DNA from: Bacilli bacterium
Lineage (GTDB): Bacteria; Bacillota_I; Bacilli_A; RF39; UBA660
NCBI GenBank assembly: GCA_017398945.1
Contig: JAFQES010000018.1
Location: forward strand, 74,494-138,493
DNA: 64,000 nt
Reading direction: 5' to 3'
Each line of letters begins with the position of its first letter. The first letter of the stretch is position 1. The position numbers were made by a program, and so were the translations under genes. The notes beneath the pieces are model-generated. The model saw only the letters and a list, made by a program, of their open reading frames with translations, was not told the DNA's origin and did not search any database. Below are positions 24,621-49,663 of the stretch, piece by piece.

Positions 24621-27022
24621 ACAACTATATTAACAATTTTATTTTTGACTACAATAACTTTAATAATTTGTAATCCCTCTGTGTGTTTTTTAACATTTTC
24701 TTCTGCTAAAGCTTTTTCTTTAACACTATCTTCAGCTTCATCTAATTCAATGTTGATGCTTCCTCTTAATTTACCATTAACTTGTACTCCAATAGTAATT
24801 TCTTTATCAATTGTTTTAGCTTCATCATATTCTGGCCAAGTACTTTCACAAATTGGTTTAAACCCTAATTGTTCATTTAATTCTTCAGTAACATGTGGAG
24901 CAATTGGATTTAATAATGTTAATAATAATTCATAATCTTTTTTAGAAATACTTTGAGCATCTTCATATGCATTAGTTAAAATCATTAAAGCGGACACAGC
25001 TGTATTGTAAGCCATGGTTTGTAAATCATTAGTGACTTTCTTGATTGTTTTATGTTGAATTGATTCTAAAGAACTCGTAAATTCATCGCTATCATTCAAT
25101 TTGCTTTGTAATCTAACTACCTTATCTAAGAAACGTTTACATCCTTTTAATGAATCGGTACTCCAAGGAGCATCCGATGTATAATCACCCATGAACATTT
25201 CATAAATTCTTAGGGTATCTGCTCCATACTCGTTAACGATATCATCTGGATTAATAACATTTCCTTTCGATTTACTCATTTTTTCATTATTTGAACCTAA
25301 AACCATTCCGTGAGAAACTCTAGTCCAAATCATTTCTTTATTAGGAACTAATCCAATGTTGTATAAAAATTGAACCCAGAAACGGGCATATAACAAATGT
25401 CTTGCTGTATGTTCCATTCCACCATTATACCAATCTACTCTATTCCAATATTTCATGGCATCCATAGAAGCAAATTCTTTATCATTACATGCATCCATAA
25501 ATCTTAAGAAATACCAGGAAGATCCAGCCCAGTTTGGCATTGTATCGGTTTCTCTTTTAGCTGCGCCATGACATTTTGGGCAAGTAGTATTTACCCAATC
25601 AGTTATTTTGGCAAGTGGACTTTCGCCATTATCAGTTGGTTCATATTCTGCAACATCAGGTAATAGTAATGGTAAATCTTTTTCATCCATTGGAACCCAT
25701 CCACATTTTTCACAATAAATCATTGGAATTGGTTCTCCCCAGAATCTTTGTCTTGAGAATATCCAATCACGCATTTTATAATTATTAACTTCTCTAGCAA
25801 TACCTAAATCCACTAGTTTTTTAGTTATAGCAGGTTTAGCTTCTTCAACTGTTAGTCCATCAAACTCAGCTGAATTCATTAACTTACAACCTTTTCCTAA
25901 ATAATCATGTTTTTCAAAGGCTTTTTCTTCTACTGATGCTCCGTCAATTACTTGAATCATTTCTAAGTTATGTTCAGTTGCATATTCAAAGTCTCTTTGG
26001 TCATGAGTTGGAACAGCCATAACTGCTCCAGTCCCGTAATCTCCTAAAACAAAGTCTCCTAAGAAAATTGGTACTTCTTTACCATTAATAGGATTAATTG
26101 CTTTGATTCCTTTAATTTTAACACCAGTTTTTCCTTTATTTAATTCAGTACGGTCCATATTAGATTTTTTAGCAGTTTCTTTAATATAGTTTTCTACTTC
26201 TTCTTTATTTTCTACACGAGGCATTAATTCTTTAATTAATTTACCATCTGGAGCAATTACAAAGAATGTAATTCCATAAACAGTTTCGATACAAGTTGTA
26301 AAGACAGAAAATTTTCCGCCACCAACAATATCAACATCTAATTCAACACCAGTTGATTTTCCAATCCAATTTATTTGACCAAGCTTTACTCTTTCGGCAA
26401 AGTTAGTATCATCTAAGCCAGTTAATAAATCCTCGGCATATTCACTCATTTTTAACATCCATTGAGATTTTTCCTTTTGAACTACACTGTCTCCACAACG
26501 TTCACAAACTCCACCTGCGGCATCTTCGTTAGATAAAACACTTTTACAAGTAGGACACCAGTTAACAGGAATAGTAGCTTTGTAAGCCATATTATGTTTA
26601 TAAAATTGTAAGAATTGCCATTGTGTCCATTTATAATATTCTGGATCTGTTGTGGAAAATTCTCTACTCCAATCAAAAGAGAATCCTAATGATTTCATTT
26701 GCCCTTTAAACGTTTTAATATTTTCTTTAACAGCATCTTTAGGATGTATATGATTTTTAATAGCATACTGTTCAGCAGGAGATCCAAAAGCATCCCATCC
26801 CATAGGATATAAAACATTATATCCTTGCATTCTTTTCATTCTAGCTAAAGCATCCTGTGCTGTATAACTTCTTACATGTCCAACATGTAGTCCTGATCCT
26901 GATGGATAAGGAAATTCTACTAATATGTAATATGGTTTTTTATCTCCATTAGTTTTAGCTTCAAATACTTTCGTATTATCCCAAAAATCTTGCCATTTCT
27001 TTTCAATATTTTTAAAATCCAT
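24614..27022 (-). CDS. leuS: Leucine--tRNA ligase
   Basis: HIGH region GLHVGHVRSY, KMSKS region EKMSKSKGN, and the CP1 editing domain. The start is set at MDFKNIEKKW (SD agagg). Confidence 0.95.
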   Translation of the reverse strand: MDFKNIEKKWQDFWDNTKVFEAKTNGDKKPYYILVEFPYPSGSGLHVGHVRSYTAQDALARMKRMQGYNVLYPMGWDAFGSPAEQYAIKNHIHPKDAVKENIKTFKGQMKSLGFSFDWSREFSTTDPEYYKWTQWQFLQFYKHNMAYKATIPVNWCPTCKSVLSNEDAAGGVCERCGDSVVQKEKSQWMLKMSEYAEDLLTGLDDTNFAERVKLGQINWIGKSTGVELDVDIVGGGKFSVFTTCIETVYGITFFVIAPDGKLIKELMPRVENKEEVENYIKETAKKSNMDRTELNKGKTGVKIKGIKAINPINGKEVPIFLGDFVLGDYGTGAVMAVPTHDQRDFEYATEHNLEMIQVIDGASVEEKAFEKHDYLGKGCKLMNSAEFDGLTVEEAKPAITKKLVDLGIAREVNNYKMRDWIFSRQRFWGEPIPMIYCEKCGWVPMDEKDLPLLLPDVAEYEPTDNGESPLAKITDWVNTTCPKCHGAAKRETDTMPNWAGSSWYFLRFMDACNDKEFASMDAMKYWNRVDWYNGGMEHTARHLLYARFWVQFLYNIGLVPNKEMIWTRVSHGMVLGSNNEKMSKSKGNVINPDDIVNEYGADTLRIYEMFMGDYTSDAPWSTDSLKGCKRFLDKVVRLQSKLNDSDEFTSSLESIQHKTIKKVTNDLQTMAYNTAVSALMILTNAYEDAQSISKKDYELLLTLLNPIAPHVTEELNEQLGFKPICESTWPEYDEAKTIDKEITIGVQVNGKLRGSINIELDEAEDSVKEKALAEENVKKHTEGLQIIKVIVVKNKIVNIVVK

Positions 27023-27023
27023 T

Positions 27024-27437
27024 TTAATTACCTCTTTTCCTTTCAACATTTAATAAGTATCTTCCATATATTTCATAAATAGCATAAATAAGAGCAGTTA
27101 GCAAAGCAAATCCTATTAGTAATTTAAAAATTGTTCCTAAGGGAATTAGTTCTATAATAAAAGTTACAAAAGTTATAATAAAACCATTTAATAAAGGAAG
27201 CATAATTTTTAAACTATTATAATTTAACATATCTCGATCTAGCTTAAATTTATTAACCAAATATTCTACCTCACCAATTTTACGCGGTTCCTTTTCTTTG
27301 CTGCTTTTTCTTCCTCTTTTTTTCTTTTTTCCTAACTTTTCATCAATAGCCGGTTTAGTAAGAAAAAAGTAATGAAGAATAAAAACAACTAAGTAAATTG
27401 ATAAAAACGATAAAATATAATAAGTAGTATTATTCAT
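27024..27437 (-). CDS. Small membrane protein co-transcribed with leuS
   Basis: The reading frame from MNNTTYYILSFLSIYLVVFILHYFF... has 3 TM segments and a Lys/Arg-rich loop, with SD agaaagagg. The track's longer start lies inside the T-box terminator. Confidence 0.5.
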   Translation of the reverse strand: MNNTTYYILSFLSIYLVVFILHYFFLTKPAIDEKLGKKKKRGRKSSKEKEPRKIGEVEYLVNKFKLDRDMLNYNSLKIMLPLLNGFIITFVTFIIELIPLGTIFKLLIGFALLTALIYAIYEIYGRYLLNVERKRGN

Positions 27438-27454
27438 ATAAAAACCTCTTTCTA

Positions 27455-27644
27455 AATAAAAAACATTCCTCCCAAAGGACGAATGTTTTCGTGGTACCAC
27501 CTTATTTTTTTCTCTGTAATCTGTTAAGGAAGATTAGCCCAATACAATCAAAAAGCAAGTTCATCAATTTCTTTTCTTAGTTTACACCAACCACTAAGTC
27601 TCTAGAAAAAGAAGATTTGATTACTACTCTTTTCTCATCTGCTT
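27455..27644 (-). promoter_or_regulatory. T-box leader upstream of the membrane-protein-leuS operon
   Basis: The minus strand has Stem-I-like elements (gagaaaagagtag..., tctagagac, ggttggtgtaaac), the T-box sequence AAGGTGGTACCACG (core 27490-27501), and a terminator aaacattc/gaatgttt plus T-run. A TATAAT -10 lies at 27651-27656. Confidence 0.8.
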
Positions 27645-27680
27645 AAAACTATTATACATAAATGTCTTTTTAAAATCAAA

Positions 27681-35891: not shown

Positions 35892-36308
35892 TTAATTTCC
35901 GTTATTATTTTCATCAGTTTTTTCGTTATATGTTGCATCTTTAGCAGATTCTACAGCGGTTTTACAAGCTCCATCTTTTTTATTAGGATTAGTAATACAA
36001 GCTTGACATATTTTATAGTCTTTTTCAACATCATCAAATCCTATTACAATTCCAAAAATAAAACTTACTAAGAATGGTAAGAAGAAAATTACTACTCCAG
36101 CAATCGCTCTTTTAACTAATGAACTTGTAGCATTTTTAATAGCCTTATCATCATTAGCAACTACTGCCTTTCCTAAATCCATCATACCAAAAATAATTAA
36201 TAATAGTGGAATTGCTATTTTAAATACATATAAAACATATCCTACAAATTGCCATATAGGTGATGTTCTTGTACAAAATTGAGTTACCTCTGCAAGAATA
36301 TTTAACAT
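35892..36308 (-). CDS. VirB2-like (pilin-like) two-TM protein, paralogue of 5760..6134
   Basis: IAIPLLLIIFGMMDLGKAVVANDDKAIKNATSSLVKRAIAGVVIFFLPFLV aligns residue-for-residue with the T4SS-operon protein. The Cys-containing tail is ICQAC...GAC. Confidence 0.5.
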   Translation of the reverse strand: MLNILAEVTQFCTRTSPIWQFVGYVLYVFKIAIPLLLIIFGMMDLGKAVVANDDKAIKNATSSLVKRAIAGVVIFFLPFLVSFIFGIVIGFDDVEKDYKICQACITNPNKKDGACKTAVESAKDATYNEKTDENNNGN

Positions 36309-36333
36309 CAAAATCTCTCCTTCTCTGCATATA

Positions 36334-36362
36334 ATTTTATCTAAATTATCTTATTTTGTCAA
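36334..36362 (-). promoter_or_regulatory. SigA-type promoter for the pilin-like gene (TTGACA-17-TAAAAT)
   Basis: The minus strand reads TTGACAaaataagataatttagaTAAAAT, then GAAGGAGAG and ATG. It lies immediately after the TadZ-like stop. Confidence 0.5.
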
Positions 36363-36368
36363 TATATA

Positions 36369-37364
36369 TCACTTAAACAAGCCAAATAGTTTGCTTTTTC
36401 CACCATTAGGATTTTTAAGCTTTGCAAATCCTAGTGCTATTCCAAATTCATCCATAACTTTATGATGATCTTTTTTATCATCGATATATGGTATGTTAAA
36501 GAAAACTTTACTATTACTTTCGTATTCAAAATCACTAACATCTTTATTACTTAAAATACTTCTATTTAAAACTACTTTTTTATCTTTTAATTTATCAAAC
36601 ACTTTAGGATCTTCTCTAATAAGCTTATTTAATTTTATGATTCCTGGTTCAATTAAATACACAACATCTGTACATCCAGTTTCACTACCATCATCCCCTA
36701 AGTCAACCAAAATAGCTTCTAAATCTTGATGCATTGCTACAAAAGCAGCAAATTCTAGCGTACTAATACTTTTTAATGATTCATCAGAAAAAAATGCAAA
36801 GTCATTTTTATCAAGTTCTACTGCTACAACTTTGTACGCCTGTTCTAAATGTTTTTTTAGCATATATACTAAAGTTGTTGATCCAGCATGGGATGTAACA
36901 TTTTTAAAACCAATCACTCTCGTCTTCATCGACCCAAAAACTCCGCCAATACCATTCATATCAGGAACTTGTGATGCTACACCTTCCATATTATGATAAC
37001 TTGCAACATCTTTATATGTATTTGGATTATCAATTAAAAATTTAATGGCATCTAAGTTACGGGTAAAGTTATAAATTCCCATTGAGACTAATTGAGAAAG
37101 ATACATAGGCGCATTAGCTTCTTCTGAATCATCTAAAAGAATAATAACTTTATTCATATCAAAACTAACTGAAAGTTCTTGAATAACAGCTATTTGTTTA
37201 TAATCTTTTATAGCTGTAATATCTAAAATCATTTTATTATAAAAAAAATTATTAAATTGATTAGCTAACTCACCTGGAGTAAATTCGCCATTAATGCTTT
37301 TTATTACATCTACATCTAAAGTTGTTAGCATTGCTTGGTATTTATTTGAAACTATTACATTCAT
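36369..37364 (-). CDS. tadZ: TadZ/CpaE-like protein (receiver-like N-domain plus degenerate ParA/MinD-type domain)
   Basis: The C-domain RVIGFKNVTSHAGSTTLVYMLKKHLEQAYKVVAVELD has ParA/MinD spacing, but the P-loop is SHAGSTT instead of KGGxGKT. The N-terminal ~120 aa are CheY-like in pattern. Context is the Tad-like operon. Confidence 0.55.
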   Translation of the reverse strand: MNVIVSNKYQAMLTTLDVDVIKSINGEFTPGELANQFNNFFYNKMILDITAIKDYKQIAVIQELSVSFDMNKVIILLDDSEEANAPMYLSQLVSMGIYNFTRNLDAIKFLIDNPNTYKDVASYHNMEGVASQVPDMNGIGGVFGSMKTRVIGFKNVTSHAGSTTLVYMLKKHLEQAYKVVAVELDKNDFAFFSDESLKSISTLEFAAFVAMHQDLEAILVDLGDDGSETGCTDVVYLIEPGIIKLNKLIREDPKVFDKLKDKKVVLNRSILSNKDVSDFEYESNSKVFFNIPYIDDKKDHHKVMDEFGIALGFAKLKNPNGGKSKLFGLFK

Positions 37365-37376: not shown

Positions 37377-37865
37377 TTAATCAAATTGATCCTTTCTATC
37401 TATCATATCTGAAGTCTTTCCTTTAACGGTAAATCTGGCAATATCACCAAGAATAGGAACATTAAAACTATAAAATAGTGTTACTTCATAATTGACTCTT
37501 GTTAAACTATCATTAAATCCTTGTTTTCTTTCTTGTTCTATACAATAAAAATAATTTTCATTTTCAGTTACATTTTGAGCATTTATATCATTATAATCAT
37601 TTATTCCTAACATAGGGTTCTCGGTCGGATTATTTTGATCAACGCATCTTCCCATAGTCATGTATCCAGAGTTTCTTAAATAATTATTTATTATTTCAGC
37701 AGATACATCTGTATATCCTTGGTATTTTTCTATTATCGATATAACTTCGTTTTTTACTTTAAATACCTTTGAGTATGTTATAGTTAATGTTAGGAAAGCA
37801 ACAAATAACAAAATGAACCCTATCATTAATTGTAAAGTCCATGTTGAGCCATAAACGTCTTTCAT
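37377..37865 (-). CDS. TadE/TadF-like pseudopilin candidate
   Basis: 162 aa starting MKDVYGSTWTLQLMIGFILLFVAFLTL. It is a paralogue of 37876..38349 (shared VFKVKNEVISIIEK and a C-terminal beta-strand region ending FTVKGKTSDMI). Confidence 0.5.
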   Translation of the reverse strand: MKDVYGSTWTLQLMIGFILLFVAFLTLTITYSKVFKVKNEVISIIEKYQGYTDVSAEIINNYLRNSGYMTMGRCVDQNNPTENPMLGINDYNDINAQNVTENENYFYCIEQERKQGFNDSLTRVNYEVTLFYSFNVPILGDIARFTVKGKTSDMIDRKDQFD

Positions 37866-37875
37866 AACAAACCTC

Positions 37876-38349
37876 CTATATCATTGGTTTTGTATCACCT
37901 TTTATAGTTAAATTAAAAATCGAGCGAATAAGGGGTATTTCTAAATGATAAAAGGTTTTTATTTGATAATAATACATAGGTGCCCCTAATGTTGCTGATG
38001 CACTATTTACTTTTCTTACACAAAAGGCTGCAGCTCCGCTTGCAATATTTCCTCGTTCATCAAATCCTACCCATTCTGCGTCACCATCAAAATCTGAGTT
38101 ACAATTACCATTTATTCTATAACCTATTTCTTCTAATTCTTCAGTTACTTCTTCAGTAAAATATATATCATCTGCTAAATCAGTAACTTCCGTTAGTCCA
38201 GCACCATTTCGTTCTAATATTCTAATTAAACTATTTTTTACATTAAAAGCTTTTGTTTGATTAATTGACAAACACATATATCCAGCAAATAAAATAACAA
38301 AAAAGATTACTATCATAAATAACCAGTTACCACCAATAGCTTCTTTCAA
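37876..38349 (-). CDS. TadE/TadF-like pseudopilin candidate
   Basis: 157 aa starting MKEAIGGNWLFMIVIFFVILFAGYM, with the C-terminus YYYQIKTFYHLEIPLIRSIFNLTIKGDTKPMI. Confidence 0.5.
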   Translation of the reverse strand: MKEAIGGNWLFMIVIFFVILFAGYMCLSINQTKAFNVKNSLIRILERNGAGLTEVTDLADDIYFTEEVTEELEEIGYRINGNCNSDFDGDAEWVGFDERGNIASGAAAFCVRKVNSASATLGAPMYYYQIKTFYHLEIPLIRSIFNLTIKGDTKPMI

Positions 38350-38359
38350 TTTTGTTCAC

Positions 38360-38590
38360 CTACCCTTTATATGCACAATCGAAAGTATTACCTGGATTGC
38401 TTTCCATATAACACTCACATACACCTGTAGATTCATTACAACTTGTACATATTGCATCACTACAATTAGCGGAATCTTGTATTCCTGTTTTAATAGCTGG
38501 CCATATCACCACAGAAAAAAGAGCCACTAGACCAGCTACGGCTAAAACAATTATTACTGTTAAATTAAGTTCACTAATGGCTTCTTTCAT
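38360..38590 (-). CDS. Small pilin-like protein (candidate fibre subunit), Cys-rich
   Basis: 76 aa starting MKEAISELNLTVIIVLAVAGLVALFSVVIWPAIK, then 6 Cys in the last 34 aa. Confidence 0.5.
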   Translation of the reverse strand: MKEAISELNLTVIIVLAVAGLVALFSVVIWPAIKTGIQDSANCSDAICTSCNESTGVCECYMESNPGNTFDCAYKG

Positions 38591-38599
38591 TATTTATTC

Positions 38600-38872
38600 C
38601 TATTCTTCTAAACAATTTCGAGTATAATCTCTATTATTATAGTGAGCTGTACACTCAAAATGAGTACATTCAACAGTTCCTTCTCCATTAGCTCCAACTC
38701 CAGCATCAGCTGAGCTATAGTTTCCGTTTGAATTAACACTACTACAAGCCGTACTTAAAAGTAAATTAGCTTGAATATTTGGCCAAACAAACATTGTAAA
38801 TAATAATCCTACTGCAGCAATTGCTACTACAGTAATTACTGTCATATTTAATTCTCCTGTTGCTTCTTTCAT
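38600..38872 (-). CDS. Small pilin-like protein (candidate major subunit), Cys-containing
   Basis: 90 aa starting MKEATGELNMTVITVVAIAAVGLLFTMFVWPNIQ, then 4 Cys. It is preceded by a near-consensus promoter. Confidence 0.5.
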   Translation of the reverse strand: MKEATGELNMTVITVVAIAAVGLLFTMFVWPNIQANLLLSTACSSVNSNGNYSSADAGVGANGEGTVECTHFECTAHYNNRDYTRNCLEE

Positions 38873-38952: not shown

Positions 38953-39741
38953 TTACATATTCATCATTTGTAAAACTGCTAATACTAGCAAAATCATAAC
39001 TCCAACTCCAGTAGTTACTAACATTTGCATTGTTTTACTTTCCATTTTTTCCAAACGTTCTTTATATCTAGTCTCTCTGGCTTTTTGTTGAAGATTAGAA
39101 ATTGTTTTAGAAAAAGTCATTAATTGTTCTTGTTTTCTTTCTTGTCTCCCTAAACTTAAACGATATAGTAATCTCATCATACGCATTGAATCTCTAACTG
39201 GATAATTTCTAGCAAAATCCATATATGGTTCAATAGTATCATTACCAGCATTAATTTCATTTATCATTTGTTGTAATCCATCTTTAAAAATTGCTGGTGC
39301 ATCATTCATTGACTTACCTATAGCAACAGGAACAGTATAATGTTGGATTAAAATTTCTAAACTTTTTAAATAATAAGGAAGCATTGAATCTATTTTGTGC
39401 AAATGTGATTTATGATAGTTTTTTATAGATATGTAGTCCCATTTAAAAATAGCAAATGCTCCTATTAAAGATATAACTACTGATATAGCACTAATATCTT
39501 TTATCATAAATAACATTATTAGTATAAAGATCAAAAAAGCATTTTTTATTCTTTTGGCAAATAATATATCTGGACTTACTCCATCACCATATTTAGCTCT
39601 AACATAAAAATCCCAATCGTCTTCTTTTAATCTTCTAAATAACATTTCATTGTCAGCAAATAATTTATTGAGATCTAATCTTCCGGTGTAACTCATTATA
39701 AAGAAGACAATAATCGCTATAATAATAATTTCTATTTGCAT
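38953..39741 (-). CDS. TadC-like platform protein (T2SS-F-type domain)
   Basis: 262 aa with N-terminal and central TM segments, a cytoplasmic helical domain (LPYYLKSLEILIQHYTVPVAIGKSM...) and a C-terminal TM segment. It overlaps the upstream gene by 1 nt. Confidence 0.55.
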   Translation of the reverse strand: MQIEIIIIAIIVFFIMSYTGRLDLNKLFADNEMLFRRLKEDDWDFYVRAKYGDGVSPDILFAKRIKNAFLIFILIMLFMIKDISAISVVISLIGAFAIFKWDYISIKNYHKSHLHKIDSMLPYYLKSLEILIQHYTVPVAIGKSMNDAPAIFKDGLQQMINEINAGNDTIEPYMDFARNYPVRDSMRMMRLLYRLSLGRQERKQEQLMTFSKTISNLQQKARETRYKERLEKMESKTMQMLVTTGVGVMILLVLAVLQMMNM

Positions 39742-40634
39742 TATTCTACCCCCACATCTTCATTATAATATTTTACACCTTTAATTAAAAAGATAGCATT
39801 TATTATGATAATGGCATGAAGAATAATCTGAACATAAACTTTTTCTAATAATTCAACGTAATTTTCAGAACCTAGTAAAAATTGCATAACTAAAACTAAC
39901 AAAAATAAAACAAAACCAAAAGTTAAAAATTTTCGATAGAATGTTTTTCTATCCATTTGATCTCGATAGACACCTTCAACTAGGGTATCAATATCCATAG
40001 CCATATTTTCTAAGGATTCTCCAGAGTCTCTTGCTCCTTCTTTAGTGATTTGTAAGAATAATTGATGCATATTTTTTACCATATAAAATGGGTATTTACT
40101 ATTAAAATATTCGATTGATTCATCAATGGTACCATTTTTATATGACATATCTATCATATTTTTTAAATCTCTTAAAACAGGATCTTCAATAATACCAGAA
40201 TCTCTAACTCCTTCTAAGGATTTAACAAAACTCTGTGTTGTATTAAATTCCATTATAACGTTAGTCGTATATACTTGAATTTGTTCAAAAATGTATTCAC
40301 TATATAACCTTTGACTTCTTAAATAAGCAAGATATGGAATAAAAGCAATTGCTACCCCAGCATAAACTATTGCCCATAAGATACTATAGAAATAAAAGTA
40401 TGAAATACCACCTGCTAATCCTCCAAATAAAACTACTTGTAATACATATTGTTTTTTAGTATATTGAAAACCTAATTCTTTTGTTTTTTGATTTACTTCT
40501 TTGAAAGTATATGGAGCATATTTTTCATATACATCAATAGCCTTCTTAGAAGCATCCTTGTAAGCTTGTTGACCATTACCAGTTCTATATAACATTACAA
40601 AAGCTGCAATTGCAAGTAATAAAATTAGCTCCAT
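39741..40634 (-). CDS. TadB-like platform protein (T2SS-F-type domain)
   Basis: 297 aa with the same TM/helical-domain/TM layout. It directly follows the ATPase gene. Confidence 0.55.
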   Translation of the reverse strand: MELILLLAIAAFVMLYRTGNGQQAYKDASKKAIDVYEKYAPYTFKEVNQKTKELGFQYTKKQYVLQVVLFGGLAGGISYFYFYSILWAIVYAGVAIAFIPYLAYLRSQRLYSEYIFEQIQVYTTNVIMEFNTTQSFVKSLEGVRDSGIIEDPVLRDLKNMIDMSYKNGTIDESIEYFNSKYPFYMVKNMHQLFLQITKEGARDSGESLENMAMDIDTLVEGVYRDQMDRKTFYRKFLTFGFVLFLLVLVMQFLLGSENYVELLEKVYVQIILHAIIIINAIFLIKGVKYYNEDVGVE

Positions 40635-40649: not shown

Positions 40650-41786
40650 CTATAATGATTCTATATTGTTAGAAATCAATTGAGTTTCTAAATTGTTTTG
40701 TTGACTATTATCTTCTACTGCTTCAGCAGCTGTTATATGAAGAGGATTTTCGTCTAAAATAACACCTTGCGCTCCCATATATCTTCTTAAATACTCAGTT
40801 GGATTATTAAAAGATATCGTTCCATCTAATCCCTTTTTAAATAAGATATTAGAACCTGCTTCATTGTTATCATCAACAAAGAACTCACATACTTCAACTA
40901 TTTCTCTTTGAAATCTACCTAATTCTTTGCTTAAATAACCTTTTACATGAACCCCAATTTGAACATATCGATGAATTGATTTTAAAAATTGGTCAATATC
41001 TTGATTACTTTCTAATAAACTGTACATACGCATCGGAATATTTTTGGCACTGTCTGAGTGAATAGTAGAAATTATGTTATGTCCAGAAGAAATTGAGTTT
41101 CTTACAGCCATTACAGCTTCTCCACTACGAACTTCGGAAAGTAAAATCCATCGAGGATTCTGTCTCATACATGTTACCAATACATCTGAATATGAAGCGA
41201 TATTATTAGTTTTCATTGCAACAATATCACGCATTGGAAATATTTTGTCTAAGTGTAATTCTAGTGTATCCTCAATAGTAATAATTTTTTCATTTTCCTT
41301 TGTGTTACTAGCTAAGTATTTTACCAATTCGGTTTTACCTGAACCAGTTTCTCCACTTACTATAATATTGCAATGTCCAATAACACATTGAATAAGAAAA
41401 TTATGTAATTCCTCTGTTACATATTTTTCGTCTAATAATTTTTCTTTATTTAATCTAATTTTGGCTGGAGTTTTACGTATAACTAACGCTGTTCCATTTG
41501 TAGCAATTGAGTCATGTACAAAGTTCATACGTAACTCAGCACTTTCAGCATCCAAAAAAGGATGAGCCATATTAAACGTCTTACCCATAACATTAGCACA
41601 TTGAAAGGCTAACTTATCAATTAAGGGATCATTTATTTCTGGTCTTTCAACTTTATAAACACCTTTGTCTAAAGACTTTAACCAAATTTGCCCCCCATTG
41701 GTATATGAAACGTCTGTTATATTGTCATCCTCTAAAAACTCTTTTAACGGACCAAAATCGATTTGGGAAAATATTGCATCTCTCAT
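40650..41786 (-). CDS. tadA: TadA/CpaF-type secretion ATPase (T2SS-E/VirB11 superfamily)
   Basis: Walker A SGETGSGKTE, Asp box IITIEDTLEL, MRQNPRWILLSEVRSGEA, His box STIHSDSA, and the N-terminal NITDVSYTNGGQIWL motif. Confidence 0.8.
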   Translation of the reverse strand: MRDAIFSQIDFGPLKEFLEDDNITDVSYTNGGQIWLKSLDKGVYKVERPEINDPLIDKLAFQCANVMGKTFNMAHPFLDAESAELRMNFVHDSIATNGTALVIRKTPAKIRLNKEKLLDEKYVTEELHNFLIQCVIGHCNIIVSGETGSGKTELVKYLASNTKENEKIITIEDTLELHLDKIFPMRDIVAMKTNNIASYSDVLVTCMRQNPRWILLSEVRSGEAVMAVRNSISSGHNIISTIHSDSAKNIPMRMYSLLESNQDIDQFLKSIHRYVQIGVHVKGYLSKELGRFQREIVEVCEFFVDDNNEAGSNILFKKGLDGTISFNNPTEYLRRYMGAQGVILDENPLHITAAEAVEDNSQQNNLETQLISNNIESL

Positions 41787-41800: not shown

Positions 41801-42598
41801 TTAATTTCCAACTACTGCAGAATTTGCTTCTATCATGTTTTTTAAATATAAATTTACGATATTTTCTTTTTGTTCAGTTATTTCTGAGTACGGTACTTCT
41901 TTCGGAACCGGTATAAGTTCAAATGAATATGTACTTAACATAGTCGCTTTTGTTAATAACTCAAAATTTGCTTTAGAAACAACCGTAATTATGTATTTCG
42001 GAGATGAACCTTCATCACCAGCCGTTGTACTCCATTTTGTATCAACTACATCTATTACTTCCAAGTTTTCCATAAATGGCGCAAATATTACTTTACCAGT
42101 TTCATCTTTCCCTTGTAAATATAAGTCGATAGCATTCCCTGGTGCAATGGAATTTCCGTGTGTTGTATCTAAATCAACATCTAACATAAATAACTTGTAA
42201 TCTTTTTTTAAATTTTTATATAATTTTTGATCAGCTTTTTCTGATTTAGCAACCAGATCATCAGTACATAGCAAAGAACCAGCTGTCAAACTATGATCAA
42301 AATTTACAAAAAAGAATTCGTTGTTACCATCTTTTATTTGCGATAAATTTGTAACTAAATTTTTATATGTTTCGGTTAATTTTTTATTAACAGTAACCTT
42401 ACCTAACATATCTTCTGTTAATTGCGTATTACTTCCTACGGCTTCTTTAACATAATATACTTGAATCGTTGCAACGCTTTGATTTACCCGATAATTATAC
42501 CCAACATATAAAACGATAATCCCTGCTAATACACCTAAAATTGTTACAGTGTTTTTATTTGCTATAAATCTTTTTAAATTATTTAATAAATTACCCAT
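41801..42598 (-). CDS. cpaB: CpaB/RcpC-like pilus assembly protein (N-terminal TM, SAF-like and beta-clip domains)
   Basis: TM segment TVTILGVLAGIIVLYVG, then IQVYYVKEAVGSNTQLTEDMLGKVTV (SAF-like), and LFMLDVDLDTTHGNSIAPGNAIDLYL...LEVIDVVD...YIITVVSKANFELLTKA (RcpC-like). Confidence 0.65.
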   Translation of the reverse strand: MGNLLNNLKRFIANKNTVTILGVLAGIIVLYVGYNYRVNQSVATIQVYYVKEAVGSNTQLTEDMLGKVTVNKKLTETYKNLVTNLSQIKDGNNEFFFVNFDHSLTAGSLLCTDDLVAKSEKADQKLYKNLKKDYKLFMLDVDLDTTHGNSIAPGNAIDLYLQGKDETGKVIFAPFMENLEVIDVVDTKWSTTAGDEGSSPKYIITVVSKANFELLTKATMLSTYSFELIPVPKEVPYSEITEQKENIVNLYLKNMIEANSAVVGN

Positions 42599-42613: not shown

Positions 42614-43027
42614 CTACTTTTCAAATTCTCCATGGTTTATTACTGCATCTATTTTTTCAACTATATCAAAACTATCTGCATCACCCATAACGTTAAATGA
42701 ATTTGATTGACTCGAAACTCTTACACTAACTTTTGGAGGTGCCTCATAAATATCATAAAAACTTATGGTATAAGTACTACTTAATGATACTGAATCAGCA
42801 AATCTTCTGATGAAAGATTCTATAAACTTCTCTTTGTTAATTCTTACTTCTTTCCAATCACGATAATAAGTATAATCAATAGCATCTAACATAGAAGCTT
42901 GAGCTATTTCTTTTACTAAGTAATAGTCTTGACTTTTTGTAGTTGTAATATTATTTATAAGCATCATTACTACTACAATAAATATACCTAGTAAAACTAA
43001 CCAATAACCCCAATAGGTATCTTTCAT
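42614..43027 (-). CDS. Pilin-like/pseudopilin candidate
   Basis: 137 aa starting MKDTYWGYWLVLLGIFIVVVMMLINN, with the same MK(E/D)-type short leader as the four genes at 37.4-38.9 kb. Confidence 0.45.
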   Translation of the reverse strand: MKDTYWGYWLVLLGIFIVVVMMLINNITTTKSQDYYLVKEIAQASMLDAIDYTYYRDWKEVRINKEKFIESFIRRFADSVSLSSTYTISFYDIYEAPPKVSVRVSSQSNSFNVMGDADSFDIVEKIDAVINHGEFEK

Positions 43028-43043: not shown

Positions 43044-46007
43044 CTATCTGAATGCTGGTCCTTCTTGTGATTTTTTACCCTTGTAAGCGGACCATATACG
43101 TTCTGATACATCTAATTCATCAAGATTGTCTTCAATTTTATTATTATCTAATTCTCCTGCTAAAGTATCAAGATAAGTACTTGTACAAATTACATAATCA
43201 TTTGTTAAATTTATACAATTTAAAGTATTATTTAAATAACCTCCAGCATCTTCAACAGAGTCATTATAATCACGAATTCTATTAATATCATTTGGTTCTA
43301 ATGTAATACTGTAAACTAAATTATCCTCAGTATATGCTTCTTCGCCTGAATTTTTAATATTAGCTAAAGCCGCTTGTCCTTTCTCAGTTCTCCAATTTGC
43401 TGCCAAGCCTTCTGTATTCGGAGTTGCTGTTGCAACAACATCTTCAACATTATTTTCTTCTTTTGCTTCAACTGAATTATAAGCTAAAGCATTTTTATGA
43501 ACATTATTTAAGTATGCTACATCTGCTCCTGCAAAAGGATTCATTAGCGAAATTGGTGAAAAATCTATTGCCAAGCCATTAGAAATATCAAATACACATC
43601 CTACGCTACGACATTGCCAAATACATTCATCATCACAATCAGGATCTCCCCAACACATTCCTTCGGGATCACATCCCCAATCACAGTCTGTACATCCGTT
43701 AACGTTATAAGGACAAATAAGATCTACTTCATCCAAACCTAATTCATAAGCAACTGCTTCTAGTCTACCTGCTTTACATTTGCCGCCATGAAGATGGTGT
43801 CCATAATTACTAACAATAAATTGATATGAGTATTGACCTTGAGGTGTTTCATAATCTACTGGCCATCCTTCAGTATATACTGTTCCAGGCATCTCTTCAC
43901 ATTGATCTTTAGTATAATTATAATATGATTCCCCTTTGTTGTAATCATTACAAATTCCAACAGAATTTAATTTGTAAGTATTTTTTATAGTAGCTGAACC
44001 ACTCGTATAGTTAGCATCAGTAAATTCTTTAGTCTTTTCAGAACCAATACCTAAAGAAACCGATGTTTTTTTGCTTGTTTTGTTACTTTGATATTTTCCA
44101 GTAGTAGATTTATAAGTAGTAGTAGGTGTATTAGTTGTTACCTCTACATTTACAAGTTCTAAATCCTTGCTAGTTATTCTTAACCATTCTCCATCTGTAT
44201 ATGTAAAACTTACACTTGGATGACAATTTCCTGATTTAGATACTGCTTTTTCTAAATTTCCAAAGTCCCAACTATTACATTGTTCATACAATCCAACTTG
44301 TTCATTTGAATAATTAATATATTCAGCTTTTTTTGCTGCAATAGTCGCGTCATCTGCCTTTATTGTTTGAGCAACACATGTTCCTACAGCTACCTCTTCA
44401 GTTATTGTGCCTGATTTAGTAGGGTCATTTACTATTTCAACTGCCAAACTACTTCCTTTTCTTCTAGCAACATATTCTTTGGTAGTTGTAGTTTTAGCTT
44501 CTTTAGTTTCTTTTGAGCCATCATCTAAAGTTTCTTTCCAAGTAGTACATGTTACAGTTGTTTCACTTAAAGTATTAGCATATTGTTGCGCTTTATTTAC
44601 TATGTTTTCCATTAATTTATCAATATAGTTTTCACCATAACATGAAATATGAGTTTCATCATAAGCTTCATCAGGTTCAAAATTAAAATACGACCCAGAT
44701 GTTATTAAATATTCATTACCATTTTTATCTAGTGTACTTAATGGCCCAGGTGATAAGAATTCGTAATCTTCTGTACAATAAATATCACAATATTCATTGG
44801 ATTTAATTGTTTCACCCATTATCATTTCAGTCGCCTTTAACGACGTTCCGGTTATATCTTCTTCACCAATAATACATGCATCAATAGATTCATCAGTTGA
44901 TGTATATTCATCTCCTTCAGTAACAGTAACAACTGTTTGCCCAAAACTATCACATAATCCACTAAATGCTCCTGGAACGCCACCAGATGAGTTGTCAGTG
45001 TATCCAGGTATTTCTCTACAGTCTTCATCTCCTGGATCATCAGGATCAGCACCACAATTTATTGGTTCACCAGAAGCTATATCTATAGTTGATTCTCCGC
45101 CTCCGTTACTTGTTTGGTCGCATCCCATATAATTTTGAGCTCCAGATCCTAAATTACAGTTATATTGAACTACTTTAGTACAAGCATTGGCTGCCCCACT
45201 ATAAGTAAGTGTTGCAGAATAAGTTCCACAATTTCCGCTTCCATCATCCTTTTTGGTTGCATTAAAACTTTTTGAAACTGAACCTGATACTTCTGTAGTA
45301 CCAGCACCTTCCAAATCTCCAGTAACCGTAAGTTTTGCTCCAGAAGGTACATTTGAACATGTTATTGTTACTTTACCATTAGCATTTTTAGCGCTACAGC
45401 TTGGCGCTTGAAATTGGGCCGGACTTCCTGTACCAGCTCCACTAGCCGAAATAGCTCCAGCCGCAAGATCTATAGCAGCAGTACCAATTTCATCAGTTTG
45501 GACGCCAAACTCACTAGCGCAATTTGCACCATAAGAACTTTTCTTACTTGTTAATCCTTCAGACATTTTATACCCAGCTTTTGATGATGCTTGAGATGCT
45601 GCAGAAATATATCCACATTGAGTGTTTACAACATCCTTACTAGAAGAATTCTGGAATCTAGAAGTTCCTGTGGCAGTAGAATAAATTCTCATCGCTAACG
45701 CCTTTGTTTCTTCATCAGCATTACTACTAAAAATGTAGGCCGCTCCAGCCGCTTGTTGCCCAGTTACTTCTTTTGAAGTACAAGATGCTCCACTAGTTGC
45801 AGTTACCTTTCCTGGATCAACACAGTATGCGCTTCCTCCATCTTCAAAATTAATTATTGTTGCCCCTCCAGCTTTATAACCATCATCTTTATAAAAATGA
45901 GTACTACTAACATCAGAATAATCAGAAACTTTTTTATCTGCGTTTGCCATCATTGGACAAACAAATAAAGTTAAAATAATTAATAAACTTAATATTTTCT
46001 TTTTCAT
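43044..46007 (-). CDS. Large secreted cysteine-rich protein (987 aa), function unknown
   Basis: Signal peptide MKKKILSLLIILTLFVCPMMANA. About 35 Cys by my count, including 9 in CPYNVNGCTDCDWGCDPEGMCWGDPDCDDECIWQCRSVGC. There are Gly/Ser/Ala/Thr-rich segments. No LPXTG motif or C-terminal TM segment is seen. Confidence 0.7.
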   Translation of the reverse strand: MKKKILSLLIILTLFVCPMMANADKKVSDYSDVSSTHFYKDDGYKAGGATIINFEDGGSAYCVDPGKVTATSGASCTSKEVTGQQAAGAAYIFSSNADEETKALAMRIYSTATGTSRFQNSSSKDVVNTQCGYISAASQASSKAGYKMSEGLTSKKSSYGANCASEFGVQTDEIGTAAIDLAAGAISASGAGTGSPAQFQAPSCSAKNANGKVTITCSNVPSGAKLTVTGDLEGAGTTEVSGSVSKSFNATKKDDGSGNCGTYSATLTYSGAANACTKVVQYNCNLGSGAQNYMGCDQTSNGGGESTIDIASGEPINCGADPDDPGDEDCREIPGYTDNSSGGVPGAFSGLCDSFGQTVVTVTEGDEYTSTDESIDACIIGEEDITGTSLKATEMIMGETIKSNEYCDIYCTEDYEFLSPGPLSTLDKNGNEYLITSGSYFNFEPDEAYDETHISCYGENYIDKLMENIVNKAQQYANTLSETTVTCTTWKETLDDGSKETKEAKTTTTKEYVARRKGSSLAVEIVNDPTKSGTITEEVAVGTCVAQTIKADDATIAAKKAEYINYSNEQVGLYEQCNSWDFGNLEKAVSKSGNCHPSVSFTYTDGEWLRITSKDLELVNVEVTTNTPTTTYKSTTGKYQSNKTSKKTSVSLGIGSEKTKEFTDANYTSGSATIKNTYKLNSVGICNDYNKGESYYNYTKDQCEEMPGTVYTEGWPVDYETPQGQYSYQFIVSNYGHHLHGGKCKAGRLEAVAYELGLDEVDLICPYNVNGCTDCDWGCDPEGMCWGDPDCDDECIWQCRSVGCVFDISNGLAIDFSPISLMNPFAGADVAYLNNVHKNALAYNSVEAKEENNVEDVVATATPNTEGLAANWRTEKGQAALANIKNSGEEAYTEDNLVYSITLEPNDINRIRDYNDSVEDAGGYLNNTLNCINLTNDYVICTSTYLDTLAGELDNNKIEDNLDELDVSERIWSAYKGKKSQEGPAFR

Positions 46008-46750
46008 AAAACACTTTCTCTCTTTCGTTTTATATTCACCACTACAATGGCAACCCCTGCAATAACGATTATAGAGCCTCCAGCAATAAATGCTACTTTA
46101 TGTTTTTTAACAAAATCCCCTATATTTTCGTACCATTTTTTATTCTCTTCTTTTTCTTTCTTTTCATTTTCTACTACTTCTAAGTATTCACTAATTTGTT
46201 CATATTGGTCAGCATATTCCATTTTGACAGTGATATACTTTTGACAAGGTAAATAATCAGTTATTCCTTCACACATTATTGTTTCATAAAAATCATTGTA
46301 CATTGGAGTAACTAGATAATTTGTAAAATATTTTTCATTCCTACAGTCGGTTTCATCTGAAGAATATATTTCAAATGTAAAATTAACTACATCATCTAAG
46401 TTATACCAATTTAAAGTATACATTCCATCGGTTGTATCTTTGTACCTAATGAATTTAACTTCATCGTTATAATCGTTCATAACTTTAACATATATTTCTT
46501 TCGTAATATTTGTAAAAATAATTTTAAAGTATTCTCGATATAGTTCAACTTCTCCAACAGTTTCATTTGTAGGAGCATATAAAGAAGAATCTACTTTTTG
46601 CGATGCTTCTTCATATACAGCTTTAACACTGCCAGCCACCTTACTTAATTCCACTTGTTTTTCATAAGAACATGCCGATGCAGCGTCTACTACATTTAGA
46701 TTTGTTAATGCAAGTATTCCAGCTAGTATTCCAACCACTTTTTTCTTCAT
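46004..46750 (-). CDS. Secreted protein with a C-terminal membrane anchor, first gene of the operon
   Basis: MKKKVVGILAGILALTNLNVVDA signal peptide, C-terminal TM segment VAFIAGGSIIVIAGVAIVVV, and an NIKRKRE tail. Its stop overlaps the next ATG (ATGA). Confidence 0.6.
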   Translation of the reverse strand: MKKKVVGILAGILALTNLNVVDAASACSYEKQVELSKVAGSVKAVYEEASQKVDSSLYAPTNETVGEVELYREYFKIIFTNITKEIYVKVMNDYNDEVKFIRYKDTTDGMYTLNWYNLDDVVNFTFEIYSSDETDCRNEKYFTNYLVTPMYNDFYETIMCEGITDYLPCQKYITVKMEYADQYEQISEYLEVVENEKKEKEENKKWYENIGDFVKKHKVAFIAGGSIIVIAGVAIVVVNIKRKRESVL

Positions 46751-46876: not shown

Positions 46877-47548
46877 ATGATAGATGTTAAAGAAAAATCA
46901 AAAAATATTGGAAAGTTTTTAATAATTTTATTTTTATATTTTGCTTTATCTTATGTATTAGCTTTTGCTTTTCAAGAAGCTTTCAACTCAAAAAACAATT
47001 TAATAAATCAAACTAGTTCAATATTAGCAAGCCTATTTATATTATTAGTATTGGCACTTTTTCATATCCCGAAGATTATTAATGATTCTAGAAATTTAAC
47101 TAAAGATAATTTAAAATTAGCTTACAAAAATTGGTTAATTGGTTTAATTATAATGTATATTAGTAATACATTTATACTACTTATTAACAAAGATTTAGCT
47201 GCTAACGAAACCGCTAATCGCGCTATCTTAGAACAAGCACCTATATATGCAATTTTAGTTATGATAGTAATTGCCCCTATAACCGAGGAGATAATATTCA
47301 GATTATCACTAAAAAAAATTTTTAAAAGTAAATATACATACTGCTTCTTTTCCGGATTAATTTTTGGGCTTATGCATTTAACTTCAATTAAAGAAATATT
47401 ATTTATAGTTCCTTACGGAGCTTTGGGTTTTTTCTTCGCAAAAACTTTATATGATACTGATAACATTTTTGCTCCTACGATTACTCATATTACACATAAT
47501 GCAATGATCATATTTATTTTACTTGCCAGTAATTTTGTAGGTATTTAA
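46877..47548 (+). CDS. CPBP-family intramembrane glutamic endopeptidase (CAAX protease/Abi)
   Basis: Motifs ITEEIIFR, FGLMH and HITHN in a polytopic membrane protein. It is divergent from the Tad-like operon. Confidence 0.8.
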   Translation: MIDVKEKSKNIGKFLIILFLYFALSYVLAFAFQEAFNSKNNLINQTSSILASLFILLVLALFHIPKIINDSRNLTKDNLKLAYKNWLIGLIIMYISNTFILLINKDLAANETANRAILEQAPIYAILVMIVIAPITEEIIFRLSLKKIFKSKYTYCFFSGLIFGLMHLTSIKEILFIVPYGALGFFFAKTLYDTDNIFAPTITHITHNAMIIFILLASNFVGI

Positions 47549-47549
47549 G

Positions 47550-48323
47550 ATGAAGAAATATATAAAAATAGTATTATTTATCTTATTTTTTATTATTTTG
47601 GTAATAATGTTTGGCTTCTTAGAGACAAAACGTTTTAAAATAAAGGAATACAATATTATAGATAAATCTTTACCAAGTAGTTTTAACGGAATTAAAATAG
47701 TTCATTTCGGGGATATTTTATATGGGACTTCTATTAATAAAAATATGTTAAAAAAAATTATTAACGAAATAAATACTTTAAAACCAGATATAGTCATTTT
47801 TACTGGAGACTTATATCCAGAAGGTATTAAATTAACTAAAGATAACGAAAAAGACATAAAAAATATTTTAGGAAAAATTGATGCAAGTTTATATAAATAT
47901 GCTATTAAAGGAGATAATGATACTGATAATTATAATCATATTATGAGTGAAGCAGGTTTTATTTTATTAGATAATACCAAAGAAAAACTTTATTATAAAG
48001 GAAATACTCCAATAATTATTAGCAATACAACCTGTGAAGAAGATTTGTTTTCTATAAGATTAATCCATAAGCCTGATGATGTTGATAATTTAGATTTTAC
48101 TAACATTAATCTTATCATTGCTGGTCATAGTTTAAATGGACAAATTAGAATTCCTTTTTATGGCGGAGCCATAAAAAAAGAAGGTAGTAAGAAATATCTT
48201 GACGAGAAATATATGGTTAATAATATTCCATTTTATATTACCAACGGACTAGGAACAAACTCATTTAAATTTCGTCTATTTAATACACCTTCATTTAATT
48301 TATATCGTTTAACTAATTATTAG
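47550..48323 (+). CDS. Membrane-anchored metallophosphoesterase
   Basis: HFGDILYG, FTGDL, GDND and AGHSLNGQIR motifs, with an N-terminal TM segment. Confidence 0.75.
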   Translation: MKKYIKIVLFILFFIILVIMFGFLETKRFKIKEYNIIDKSLPSSFNGIKIVHFGDILYGTSINKNMLKKIINEINTLKPDIVIFTGDLYPEGIKLTKDNEKDIKNILGKIDASLYKYAIKGDNDTDNYNHIMSEAGFILLDNTKEKLYYKGNTPIIISNTTCEEDLFSIRLIHKPDDVDNLDFTNINLIIAGHSLNGQIRIPFYGGAIKKEGSKKYLDEKYMVNNIPFYITNGLGTNSFKFRLFNTPSFNLYRLTNY

Positions 48324-49198: not shown

Positions 49199-49221
49199 CT
49201 AAAAAAGGACTAAAGTCCTTT
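49199..49221 (-). terminator. Rho-independent terminator after the CotY/CotZ-like gene
   Basis: The minus strand reads aaggac-ttta-gtcctt followed by T5. It overlaps the stop codon. Confidence 0.6.
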
Positions 49222-49663
49222 AGCAAACACAATCTACAAAAGTATCTGATAAACATTTTATGGCACATATACAATTACAATTCATAGTAAAGAATGAGTT
49301 TGTTGAAACATATGGATTTAAACTTGTTGGATCTGGATTTTCTTGTAATACCCTAAAAGTAGCACAACATCCTTCAATTTTTTCTACTCTAAACACTGTT
49401 GAGCATGTTTCTGACACAGTACCCACTTCACAAGTTGTTGTAGTATCTTTAGAAATTGGCATACTCCATGGAGCCCCATTTCCACAACAAGTATAAAGCA
49501 TTACTGGTCTTGTATTACAAATCAAACAATTTGGTCCTCCACCTAAAACTGGACGATCACAGCTATCTAAGCAATTATCTGGGCATGCATTTTCTTGTAA
49601 AACTAAAATAACTTTTAAGATTTCCATAATGCAGTTGCTTTGATTGTTTTCATTATTGCACAT
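49220..49663 (-). CDS. Cysteine-rich spore coat/exosporium protein, CotY/CotZ/ExsY family
   Basis: CIMEILKVILVLQENAC, FRVEKIEGCCATFRVL and CNCICAIKCLS are collinear with B. subtilis CotY (CVCDAVEKILAEQE, FRVEKLCDCCATLSIL, CFCAIQCLS). Confidence 0.8.
   Translation of the reverse strand: MCNNENNQSNCIMEILKVILVLQENACPDNCLDSCDRPVLGGGPNCLICNTRPVMLYTCCGNGAPWSMPISKDTTTTCEVGTVSETCSTVFRVEKIEGCCATFRVLQENPDPTSLNPYVSTNSFFTMNCNCICAIKCLSDTFVDCVC

Follow-up and report, generated by a model that had tools for sequence, protein, structure and literature searches.

A cysteine-rich secreted protein with a predicted class II thioester domain and its membrane-anchored partner head a conserved Tad-like operon in a Bacilli bacterium

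The window analysed here is a stretch of 64,000 nucleotides from the assembly GCA_017398945.1 of a Bacilli bacterium (contig JAFQES010000018.1, positions 74,494 to 138,493), in which two genes for proteins of 248 and 987 amino acids (aa) are the first of an operon of 13 uninterrupted minus-strand open reading frames (ORFs), running from 46750 to 35892. Residues ~24-320 of the 987-aa protein are most likely a class II thioester domain (TED) of the TIE adhesin family. The whole protein is proposed to be a Sec-exported covalent adhesin, displayed by the 248-aa partner and the Tad-like machine encoded downstream, and a probability of roughly 0.55 is attached to this proposal. The initial annotation had put forward an adhesin as one candidate role, which the N-terminal class II TED fold now backs, and had recognised no family for either protein. 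The latter remains true of the 248-aa protein and of residues ~350-987 of its neighbour, but not for the first ~300 residues, where the TED/TIE relationship is predicted. The body, C-terminal tail and dedicated membrane partner of the family are novel, while the N-terminal class II TED is of a known type. The features of the pair are:

46004..46750, minus strand: 248-aa bitopic partner, proposed membrane anchor or docking partner
43044..46007, minus strand: 987-aa secreted Cys-rich protein, putative thioester-domain adhesin with a novel body
45939..46007, minus strand: Sec-type signal peptide, aa 1-23, predicted cleavage after ANA
45048..45938, minus strand: predicted class II TED, aa 24-320 (AlphaFold2, Foldseek, hhalign, weak Pfam matches in relatives)
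45822..45824, minus strand: codon of Cys62 (motif AYCVD), the predicted thioester Cys
45135..45137, minus strand: codon of Gln291 (motif AQNYM), the predicted thioester Gln
43728..44942, minus strand: central beta-rich domain, aa 356-760, proposed stalk (pLDDT mostly 85-97)
43596..43715, minus strand: 9-Cys knot, aa 765-804, each Cys present in 45-50 of 50 relatives
43047..43427, minus strand: C-terminal domain, aa 861-987, proposed docking module, common to the widest circle of relatives

The AlphaFold2 model of the 987-aa protein was built from an alignment of 50 sequences (mean predicted local distance difference test, pLDDT, 77.6) and is confident over residues 25-320 and 370-760, with lower confidence for the Cys knot and C-terminal domain. 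The TED region (pLDDT ~80-96) is modelled as a beta-barrel with a helical lobe; a beta-sandwich is inserted after these and brings back the strand carrying the Gln. Strands are followed by a helix bundle and then by a seven-strand sandwich, Gln291 enters the sixth of these strands, and Cys62 and Gln291 are 229 residues apart. Both this order and this spacing fit a class II TED. When the model was compared with 350,542 PDB chains using Foldseek, the top four matches were all class II TEDs: those of the Bacillus anthracis TIE protein BaTIE (6FWV; probabilities 1.00 and 0.99, E 2.6e-3) and of Enterococcus faecium EfmTIE86 (6FWY; 0.97 and 0.95). All remaining PDB matches had probabilities below 0.2. 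BaTIE and EfmTIE86 share with the 987-aa protein a TED right after the signal peptide, a Cys located in a first-lobe strand, and a Gln ~200-230 residues past the Cys, beyond a beta-sandwich insert. They differ in being sortase-anchored on isopeptide (CnaB) stalks, where the 987-aa protein has no LPXTG motif and is proposed to be stabilised by disulfides, and no similarity between this family and the 6FWV and 6FWY sequences could be detected by hidden Markov model (HMM) comparison.

In an alignment of 27 diverse N-terminal domains, Cys62 and Gln291 are the sole invariant columns. The Cys is also present in all of the 50 aligned relatives and the Gln in at least 90% of them. In TEDs, the Cys and Gln are the only universally conserved residues (PMC6194298). 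AYCVD fits the [YFL]C-phi-zeta motif and AQNYM fits phi-Q-zeta-phi-phi. A Cys-protease site at Cys62 was considered and rejected, the 27-domain alignment having no invariant His or Asp.

A comparison was also made with the plasmid adhesins related to TIEpLS20 of pLS20. A search for homologues that started from the pLS20 TED gave one protein, and the reference profile comprised seven class II TEDs of pLS20-family plasmid adhesins. Aligned to this profile by hhalign, the family profile gave a probability of 89% and an E-value of 2.2e-6. In the local alignment the family Cys falls on TIEpLS20 Cys68 (Cys57 in the 767-aa RefSeq form), and the Gln falls on Gln256 (Gln245 in RefSeq numbering) when the alignment is extended or made global. 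A C68S mutant shows Cys68 to be essential in TIEpLS20, where it is modelled as paired with Gln256 (PMC8092201). Weak signals, which had arisen independently, are also present among the relatives, with a sub-threshold Pfam TED match in one of 1297 aa; when the 27 N-terminal domains were scanned singly, TED_2 (3 domains) and TED (1 domain) were the commonest Pfam families, all matches being weak and sub-threshold.

Further evidence comes from the number of cysteines. The initial annotation had counted about 35 in the 987-aa protein, with 9 packed into 40 residues; there are in fact 36 in total, 35 of them in the predicted mature part, and the cluster of 9 stands, at residues 765-804 (CPYNVNGCTDCDWGCDPEGMCWGDPDCDDECIWQCRSVGC). 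When 50 aligned relatives were cut at the conserved Ala at position -1 and their mature cysteines counted, the number was odd in 47 of them, over a range from 17 to 47, and one of the three even-count exceptions is C-terminally truncated. An odd count fits a protein in which all of the cysteines but one, the thioester Cys, are in disulfides. These counts indicate clearly that cysteines were acquired and lost two at a time, with one constant residue staying unpaired. The 248-aa partner family always has 4 Cys, and the two small pilin-like proteins of the operon have 4 (90-aa protein) and 6 (76-aa protein). Sec exports unfolded chains, which counts against Fe-S cofactors, and a reading of the Cys knot as an Fe-S or metal-cluster site was rejected on this ground and on the pairwise parity.

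In two distant loci, a membrane-anchored thioredoxin with a CxxC motif (CSHC) is encoded directly upstream of the pair and beside the gene for an Rce1-like protease (L008, 2397-2852; L013, 1724-2173), and this protein is a candidate oxidoreductase for the disulfides. There is no equivalent membrane CxxC thioredoxin in the window. A DUF6568/PedC-like protein with an N-terminal transmembrane segment (6804-7367, plus strand, E 1e-50) was rejected for such a role as it has no Cys at all.

The start of the 987-aa ORF overlaps the end of the 248-aa ORF by ATGA (junction GTTTTATGAAAAAG), as had been annotated, and the pair of head genes is translationally coupled. An in-frame TTG at 46762 is an alternative start for the upstream ORF and would give a protein of 252 aa. 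Both proteins have signal peptides of the Sec type, in keeping with the initial annotation; n-, h- and AxA-type regions were seen by eye and in hydropathy profiles. That of the 987-aa protein (MKKKILSLLIILTLFVCPMMANA|DKK) is not of the prepilin type, and at least 90% of the 50 relatives share its Ala at -1. Sequence and hydropathy also bear out the absence of an LPXTG motif and of a C-terminal anchor, there being no hydrophobic segment beyond the N-terminal one. Thr, Ser, Gly and Ala make up 36% of the residues, and 21 of the 36 Cys positions are present in at least 40 of 50 relatives. Scans of both head proteins against Pfam and NCBIfam gave no match at E<0.1.

Beyond the TED, the protein does not resemble known folds. 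For the central domain there was no credible fold match in the PDB or in BFVD (viral structures) and no match among PDB sequences. Among close relatives the Cys knot is the most conserved segment (76%) and the TED the least (43-48%). The extreme C-terminus reads GP[AS][WYFLK][KR]-COOH in 45 of 50 relatives, while the residues just upstream vary freely; it is GPAWK in most of them and GPAFR in the 987-aa protein itself (43047-43061). No sorting signal of this form is known to us, and the tail is proposed to be a docking motif. Proteins of the pLS20 TIE type likewise have a conserved C-terminal tail of Trp and basic residues (...NWLKK), which cannot be aligned to the GPAWK tail, and HMMs of the central domain, knot and C-terminal domain showed no similarity to plasmid TIE proteins. 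In one distant member of the family (P0156, 1450 aa), a Peptidase_M23 domain is inserted at residues 965-1056, which hints that some members of the family may cut peptidoglycan.

Like that of the 987-aa protein, the signal peptide of the 248-aa partner has an n-region rich in Lys, followed by a hydrophobic core and a site of the AxA type. The partner ends, as described initially, in a transmembrane segment (residues ~217-240) and a basic tail containing KRKRE, given in full by KRKRESVL. Its AlphaFold2 model (pLDDT 77.6) consists of a beta-sandwich at ~43-148, a long helix at ~179-217 and the transmembrane anchor. Foldseek gave only generic Ig/FN3-like matches to this model, at E>0.04. The word-indexed protein search returned 17 homologues, and Cys residues C27, C136, C160 and C169 are invariant in 15 homologues.

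The genes that follow the pair on the minus strand encode components that are Tad-like only in a loose sense:

42614..43027: DUF5411 protein, 137 aa, N-terminal transmembrane segment, pseudopilin-like (Pfam E 6e-56)
41801..42598: CpaB/RcpC-like protein, 265 aa (weak, 1.7e-7, below cut-offs)
40650..41786: TadA/VirB11-type secretion ATPase, 378 aa (T2SSE 6e-29)
38953..40634: a pair of polytopic membrane proteins (297 and 262 aa) at the TadB/TadC position
37377..38872: pilin-like proteins of 90 and 76 aa, both small and Cys-rich, and pseudopilin-like proteins of 157 and 162 aa
36369..37364: 331-aa cytoplasmic protein, no family match
35892..37364 (with the 331-aa gene): 139-aa T4SS_pilin-like membrane protein, the last of the operon (PF18895 8e-5)

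In NCBIfam, the ATPase matches the VirB11 and 'TadA family conjugal transfer-associated ATPase' models below their equivalog cut-offs. Relatives of the 139-aa protein match PF18895 at 1.6e-5. All five proteins of the operon with an N-terminal transmembrane segment start MK[ED]xxx, followed in the pilin-like and pseudopilin-like ones by a hydrophobic helix, and this start looks like a shared non-canonical leader. Along with the ATPase, the 331-aa protein is the best conserved in the operon, at 97% identity in the closest relative and 61% in the most distant. One of its relatives has a weak ParA/CbiA match (CbiA 1.8e-3), and it may be a degenerate positioning protein of the TadZ/CpaE type.

Relatives of the 987-aa protein are numerous and lack annotation. 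A word-indexed search found three homologues, at 56, 42 and 31% identity, but an exhaustive HMM search using four large proteins as the query found 294 cluster representatives at E<=1e-3, of which 35 were at E<=1e-30. Nearly all are of 900-1400 aa, and the distant ones match mainly at profile positions ~855-980. Eight diverse members had no Pfam domain, save for one with an inserted M23 peptidase, and a metagenome scan for the adhesin returned one short contig. The family therefore comprises at least 294 sequence clusters in uncultured gut Bacilli.

Gene order was compared in 19 related loci, in 17 of which the contig extends past the large gene. In all 17 the DUF5411 gene follows directly, with the other machine genes behind it, so that the orthologues co-occur with the Tad-like genes, a point that the initial annotation had proposed to check. 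The order is small protein, large protein, DUF5411, CpaB-like, ATPase, two membrane proteins, pilin-like, 331-aa and T4SS_pilin-like protein, and it is held as far as the contigs reach. Wherever a contig extends upstream, a partner of ~250 aa precedes the large gene. The chromosomal neighbours, encoding FtsW/RodA, PTS EIIB, CotZ-like, Metallophos and Rce1-like proteins, are kept even where the large protein is less than 30% identical, which suggests that this is a core, vertically inherited locus. The locus thus presents a strictly conserved pairing of a putative TED adhesin and a Tad-like machine, with a dedicated partner and a proposed disulfide-built stalk.

The small and large genes have been duplicated in tandem in two of the loci, L015 (7246-15077) and L027 (482-8155). 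The copies have diverged, the small proteins being 30-37% identical and the large ones 26-33%. Since the two were duplicated as a unit and both have diverged, they are best seen as cognate. In L002 (1-8084) and L028 (12-4215), a second partial machine set (DUF5411, CpaB-like, TadB/C-like) lies ahead of a second pair.

Identities to the window proteins, for three loci in order of nearness and for the most distant loci compared, are as follows:

ATPase: L005, 97%; L001, 93%; L007, 89%; L026/L013, 72-86%
TadB/C-like proteins: L005, 93-96%; L001, 86-91%; L007, 81-84%; L026/L013, 68-74%
248-aa partner: L005, 85%; L001, 73%; L007, 51%; L026/L013, 38-45%
987-aa adhesin: L005, 57%; L001, 41%; L007, 29%; L026/L013, local matches only

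The pair as a whole evolves faster than the rest of the operon, and the gene for the putative adhesin is by far the fastest evolving, as would be expected of the part that meets the outside world. The hypervariable TED is probably a main determinant of the attachment target for these bacteria.

There are results that weigh against the proposed covalent adhesin and its link to the machine. The 987-aa protein has no match at E<0.1 to the Pfam families TED (PF08341) or TED_2 (PF20610), and searches of PDB sequences with the family profiles gave no meaningful match and found no TED. The Foldseek matches to TEDs have E-values of only ~1e-3 to 3e-3, with template modelling scores of 0.23-0.35 and a root-mean-square deviation of ~11 A, and the confident stretch of the hhalign alignment spans only 46 columns around the Cys. 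The binomial p of 3.7e-11 for the odd Cys counts overstates the independence of the sequences, which are related. The TQxx-phi-W motif is absent, the helical region after Cys62 having no conserved Q...W in the family consensus; the Gln and Trp of this motif are reported to be dispensable for bond formation (PMC6194298). The architecture typical of TIE proteins, in which stalk domains with isopeptide or ester bonds are joined to an LPXTG sorting signal, is also missing, with no LPXTG, no C-terminal transmembrane segment and no CnaB or other Pfam domain. As for the machine, the TadB/C candidates have no Pfam match and are identified as such only from their position and topology, and the pilin-like and pseudopilin-like proteins have no family match. 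The Flp motif G/XXXXEY is absent from the pilin-like N-termini (MKEATGELN... and MKEAISELN...), and no prepilin peptidase (Peptidase_A24) was found among the 53 window proteins put through Pfam.

If the proposal is correct, Cys62 and Gln291 would form an internal thioester after export, as the fold, the motifs and the Cys parity suggest. A nucleophile on the target surface, host or bacterial, would then attack this bond, leaving the bacterium covalently linked to its target. The other 34 cysteines would form ~17 disulfides that rigidify a stalk made of the central domain and the 9-Cys knot, taking the place of isopeptide CnaB domains. The C-terminal domain and GPAWK-type tail would hold the adhesin at the surface by docking on the 248-aa partner, on the DUF5411 protein and pseudopilins, or on both, and the ATPase-driven filament would either carry the adhesin or push it through the wall. 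The TED, which diversifies fastest, would be the most distal part.

Whether the protein sits on the filament itself is a separate matter. That it forms the tip of a Tad-like filament driven by the ATPase of a monoderm, in effect a covalent grappling hook that is extended, locks onto a target through its thioester and is held by the membrane partner, can be suggested only tentatively and is rather doubtful. It is also unlikely that the adhesin is held on the cell body by the 248-aa partner alone, with the filament either separate or acting only as a piston and carrying no tip. Such an arrangement would account for a signal peptide that is Sec-type rather than prepilin-type, for a bitopic partner that is dedicated to the adhesin and has a long helical stalk, and for the duplication of the pair without machine genes, and TIEpLS20 has been described as a surface adhesin without a pilus (PMC8092201; PMC8557374). 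It sits less well with the strictly kept gene order that joins the pair to DUF5411 and the machine, or with the second partial machine set found beside a second adhesin in L002 and L028. The C-terminal domain is, moreover, the most widely conserved part of the protein, as would be expected of a docking module shared with conserved machinery.

The covalent adhesin proposed here and its operon have their closest counterpart in the plasmid pLS20. The product of pLS20 gene 34, TIEpLS20, resembles the 987-aa protein in its Sec signal peptide, in the lack of LPXTG and in an N-terminal class II TED whose Cys and Gln align with the family pair. The order of genes also corresponds, with the TED adhesin followed by small ORFs, a DUF5411-like gene, the ATPase, two membrane proteins, small proteins with N-terminal transmembrane segments and a T4SS_pilin, and this order of adhesin and module genes is found again in Listeria pLM5578. 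Individual matches were seen for p36 (DUF5411, E 1.4e-5), p37 (an ATPase with 35% identity to that of the window, E 3e-47) and p45 (PF18895, 1.3e-7). The two systems differ in that the stalk of TIEpLS20 has CnaB-like domains and its TED contains only one Cys, where the mature 987-aa protein has 35, along with a GPAWK-type tail and a body that is novel. The window operon adds the membrane-anchored partner, the CpaB-like gene and the 331-aa protein and, unlike that of pLS20, lies on the chromosome, with no VirD4, VirB4 or relaxase gene contiguous with it.

TIEpLS20 needs no sortase and is required for conjugation in liquid, by a factor of ~1000 (PMC8092201). In the pLS20 literature p37 is called 'VirB11' and p36 and p38-45 'unknown' (PMC8557374), and Gram-positive conjugative elements are held to make no pili (PMC8557374; PMC8092201). 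The pLS20 literature examined does not discuss a Tad-like character for the 'unknown' genes. Within pLS20 (NC_015148, 9036-14265), p38 and p39 are polytopic and stand where TadB/C would, p40 weakly resembles DUF4320 and starts like a pseudopilin, and p41 is a 47-aa hydrophobic peptide of Flp size. On present sequence comparisons, the window operon is a sibling of the unexplained module in pLS20-family plasmids, and genes 36-45 may be a Tad-like set. Re-reading them as a possible Tad-like module makes the question of a filament in Gram-positive conjugation testable in B. subtilis. Were the filament-tip arrangement correct, it would extend to plasmids, pLS20 genes 34-45 being collinear with the operon and partly homologous to it, and a Tad-like filament for mating, with TIEpLS20 at its tip, would be built by Gram-positive conjugative plasmids too.

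The same likeness raises the alternative of a pLS20-like DNA transfer system whose mating-pair-formation half is this operon, the TED of a mating adhesin binding other bacteria and the type IV secretion system (T4SS) being encoded elsewhere in the genome. This is distinctly unlikely, even with an operon collinear with pLS20 genes 34-45, whose TED adhesin is needed for conjugation in liquid, an ATPase that scores on conjugal-transfer-associated TadA and VirB11 models, and a T4SS_pilin-like last gene. A T4SS-like cluster is in fact present in the same window (1-6134), all of its genes being on the minus strand:

5760-6134: 124-aa T4SS_pilin-like protein, a clear paralogue of the 139-aa protein that ends the Tad-like operon
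4468-5751: 427-aa secreted protein with the same pilin-like transmembrane hairpin at its C-terminus
1951-4449: 832-aa VirB6-like protein, weak match to the Mycoplasma integrative and conjugative element proteins Mbov_0396/MMCAP2_0566
1609-1935: 108-aa TcpE/VirB3-like protein, weak
1074-1685, with an ORF off the left edge: VirB4-like ATPase, Walker A GSAGSGKST, split

The VirB4-like gene, however, is apparently split between two frames, and no relaxase, VirD4 or VirB4 is found within ~29 kb of the operon. The cluster lies ~30 kb away, with the genes for LeuRS, TyrRS and GH31 in between. The conserved chromosomal neighbours again point to a core locus. A metagenome scan for the VirB6-like protein found nothing.

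It is very unlikely that the 987-aa protein has no TED and is instead a disulfide-knotted secreted cargo (a toxin, an enzyme or a metal-binding protein) in which the Cys and Gln have another role, as the initial annotation's mention of secreted cargo would allow, for in spite of the lack of a direct Pfam match, the modest structural scores and the two thirds of the protein that are without a known fold, Cys62 and Gln291 alone are invariant, with no His or Asp for a Cys-protease site, both align with the thioester pair of an experimentally tested TED, the odd parity points to one Cys outside disulfides, Sec export of an unfolded chain speaks against Fe-S cofactors, and a dedicated, co-evolving membrane-anchored partner argues against free release.

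Compared with other known systems, the proposed thioester adhesin on a Tad-like machine combines features found separately. Cpa of Streptococcus pyogenes sits at the tip of sortase pili. It is, as is proposed here, a pilus-associated thioester adhesin (its TEDs are cited in PMC6194298), but it has class I TEDs and is covalently joined to a sortase-built pilus, where the window operon encodes an ATPase-driven machine of the Tad/type IV filament type and the 987-aa protein has no sortase signal. Thioester adhesins are already known on sortase pili and as wall-anchored proteins; no literature was found that mentions a thioester domain together with a Tad pilus, or TEDs with pili of the type IV kind. 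PilY1 and PilC are Sec-exported, non-pilin tip adhesins of ~1000 aa, without a prepilin signal and encoded with minor pilins, and they are thought to dock on the minor-pilin tip complex through their C-terminal domain. They are proteins of diderm bacteria and their C-terminal domain is a beta-propeller; no sequence similarity to the 987-aa protein was found, nor any similarity of fold in the Foldseek PDB search.

In the Tad/Flp systems of Aggregatibacter and Caulobacter, as more loosely in the window operon, a TadA-type ATPase and a CpaB/RcpC-like protein are encoded along with two membrane proteins at the TadB/C position, with small pilins and with pseudopilins like TadE/F. The operon differs from them in that its matches to Tad families are below cut-offs and in the presence of the DUF5411 and T4SS_pilin-like genes. 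Its host is a monoderm, hence no secretin is needed. A predicted secretion operon of the gut Firmicutes Roseburia, Ruminococcus and Eubacterium has CpaF, PilC/GspF, DUF5411 and a large putative host-interaction protein (PMC9523054); the latter is described as internalin-B-like and not TED-like.

The window is chromosomal DNA of low guanine-plus-cytosine content (23-35%) from an anaerobe, and among its genes are those for PFOR, rubrerythrin, RNase Y, TyrRS and LeuRS, the last with a T-box. Among named genomes, the nearest are metagenome-assembled genomes of uncultured 'Bacilli bacterium' from goat rectum and rabbit gut, together with one that carries the label uncultured Mycoplasma sp. A megablast search of plasmid and phage collections gave no match. 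At the locus, a promoter and terminator scan gave a signal no better than in shuffled sequence, and a candidate -35/-10 at 46803-46775 (minus strand) is a pattern match only. The divergent gene next to the pair is:

46877..47548, plus strand: Rce1-like (CPBP) intramembrane protease, adjoining the pair in every relative

A Metallophos gene also flanks the pair in every relative, and in the window occupies 46877-48323 (plus strand) together with the Rce1-like gene. The gene for a CotZ-like protein (spore-coat protein Z family; 49220-49663, minus strand) is near the locus in all relatives. The T-box leader (27472-27647, minus strand, 97.6 bits) is upstream of a 158-aa ORF (27024-27500) and LeuRS (24614-27049), and is an ordinary one. 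Between the T4SS-like cluster and the housekeeping genes are two BRO-N domain proteins and a RhuM/Fic protein (7917-13308, minus strand), which are typical mobile-element cargo.

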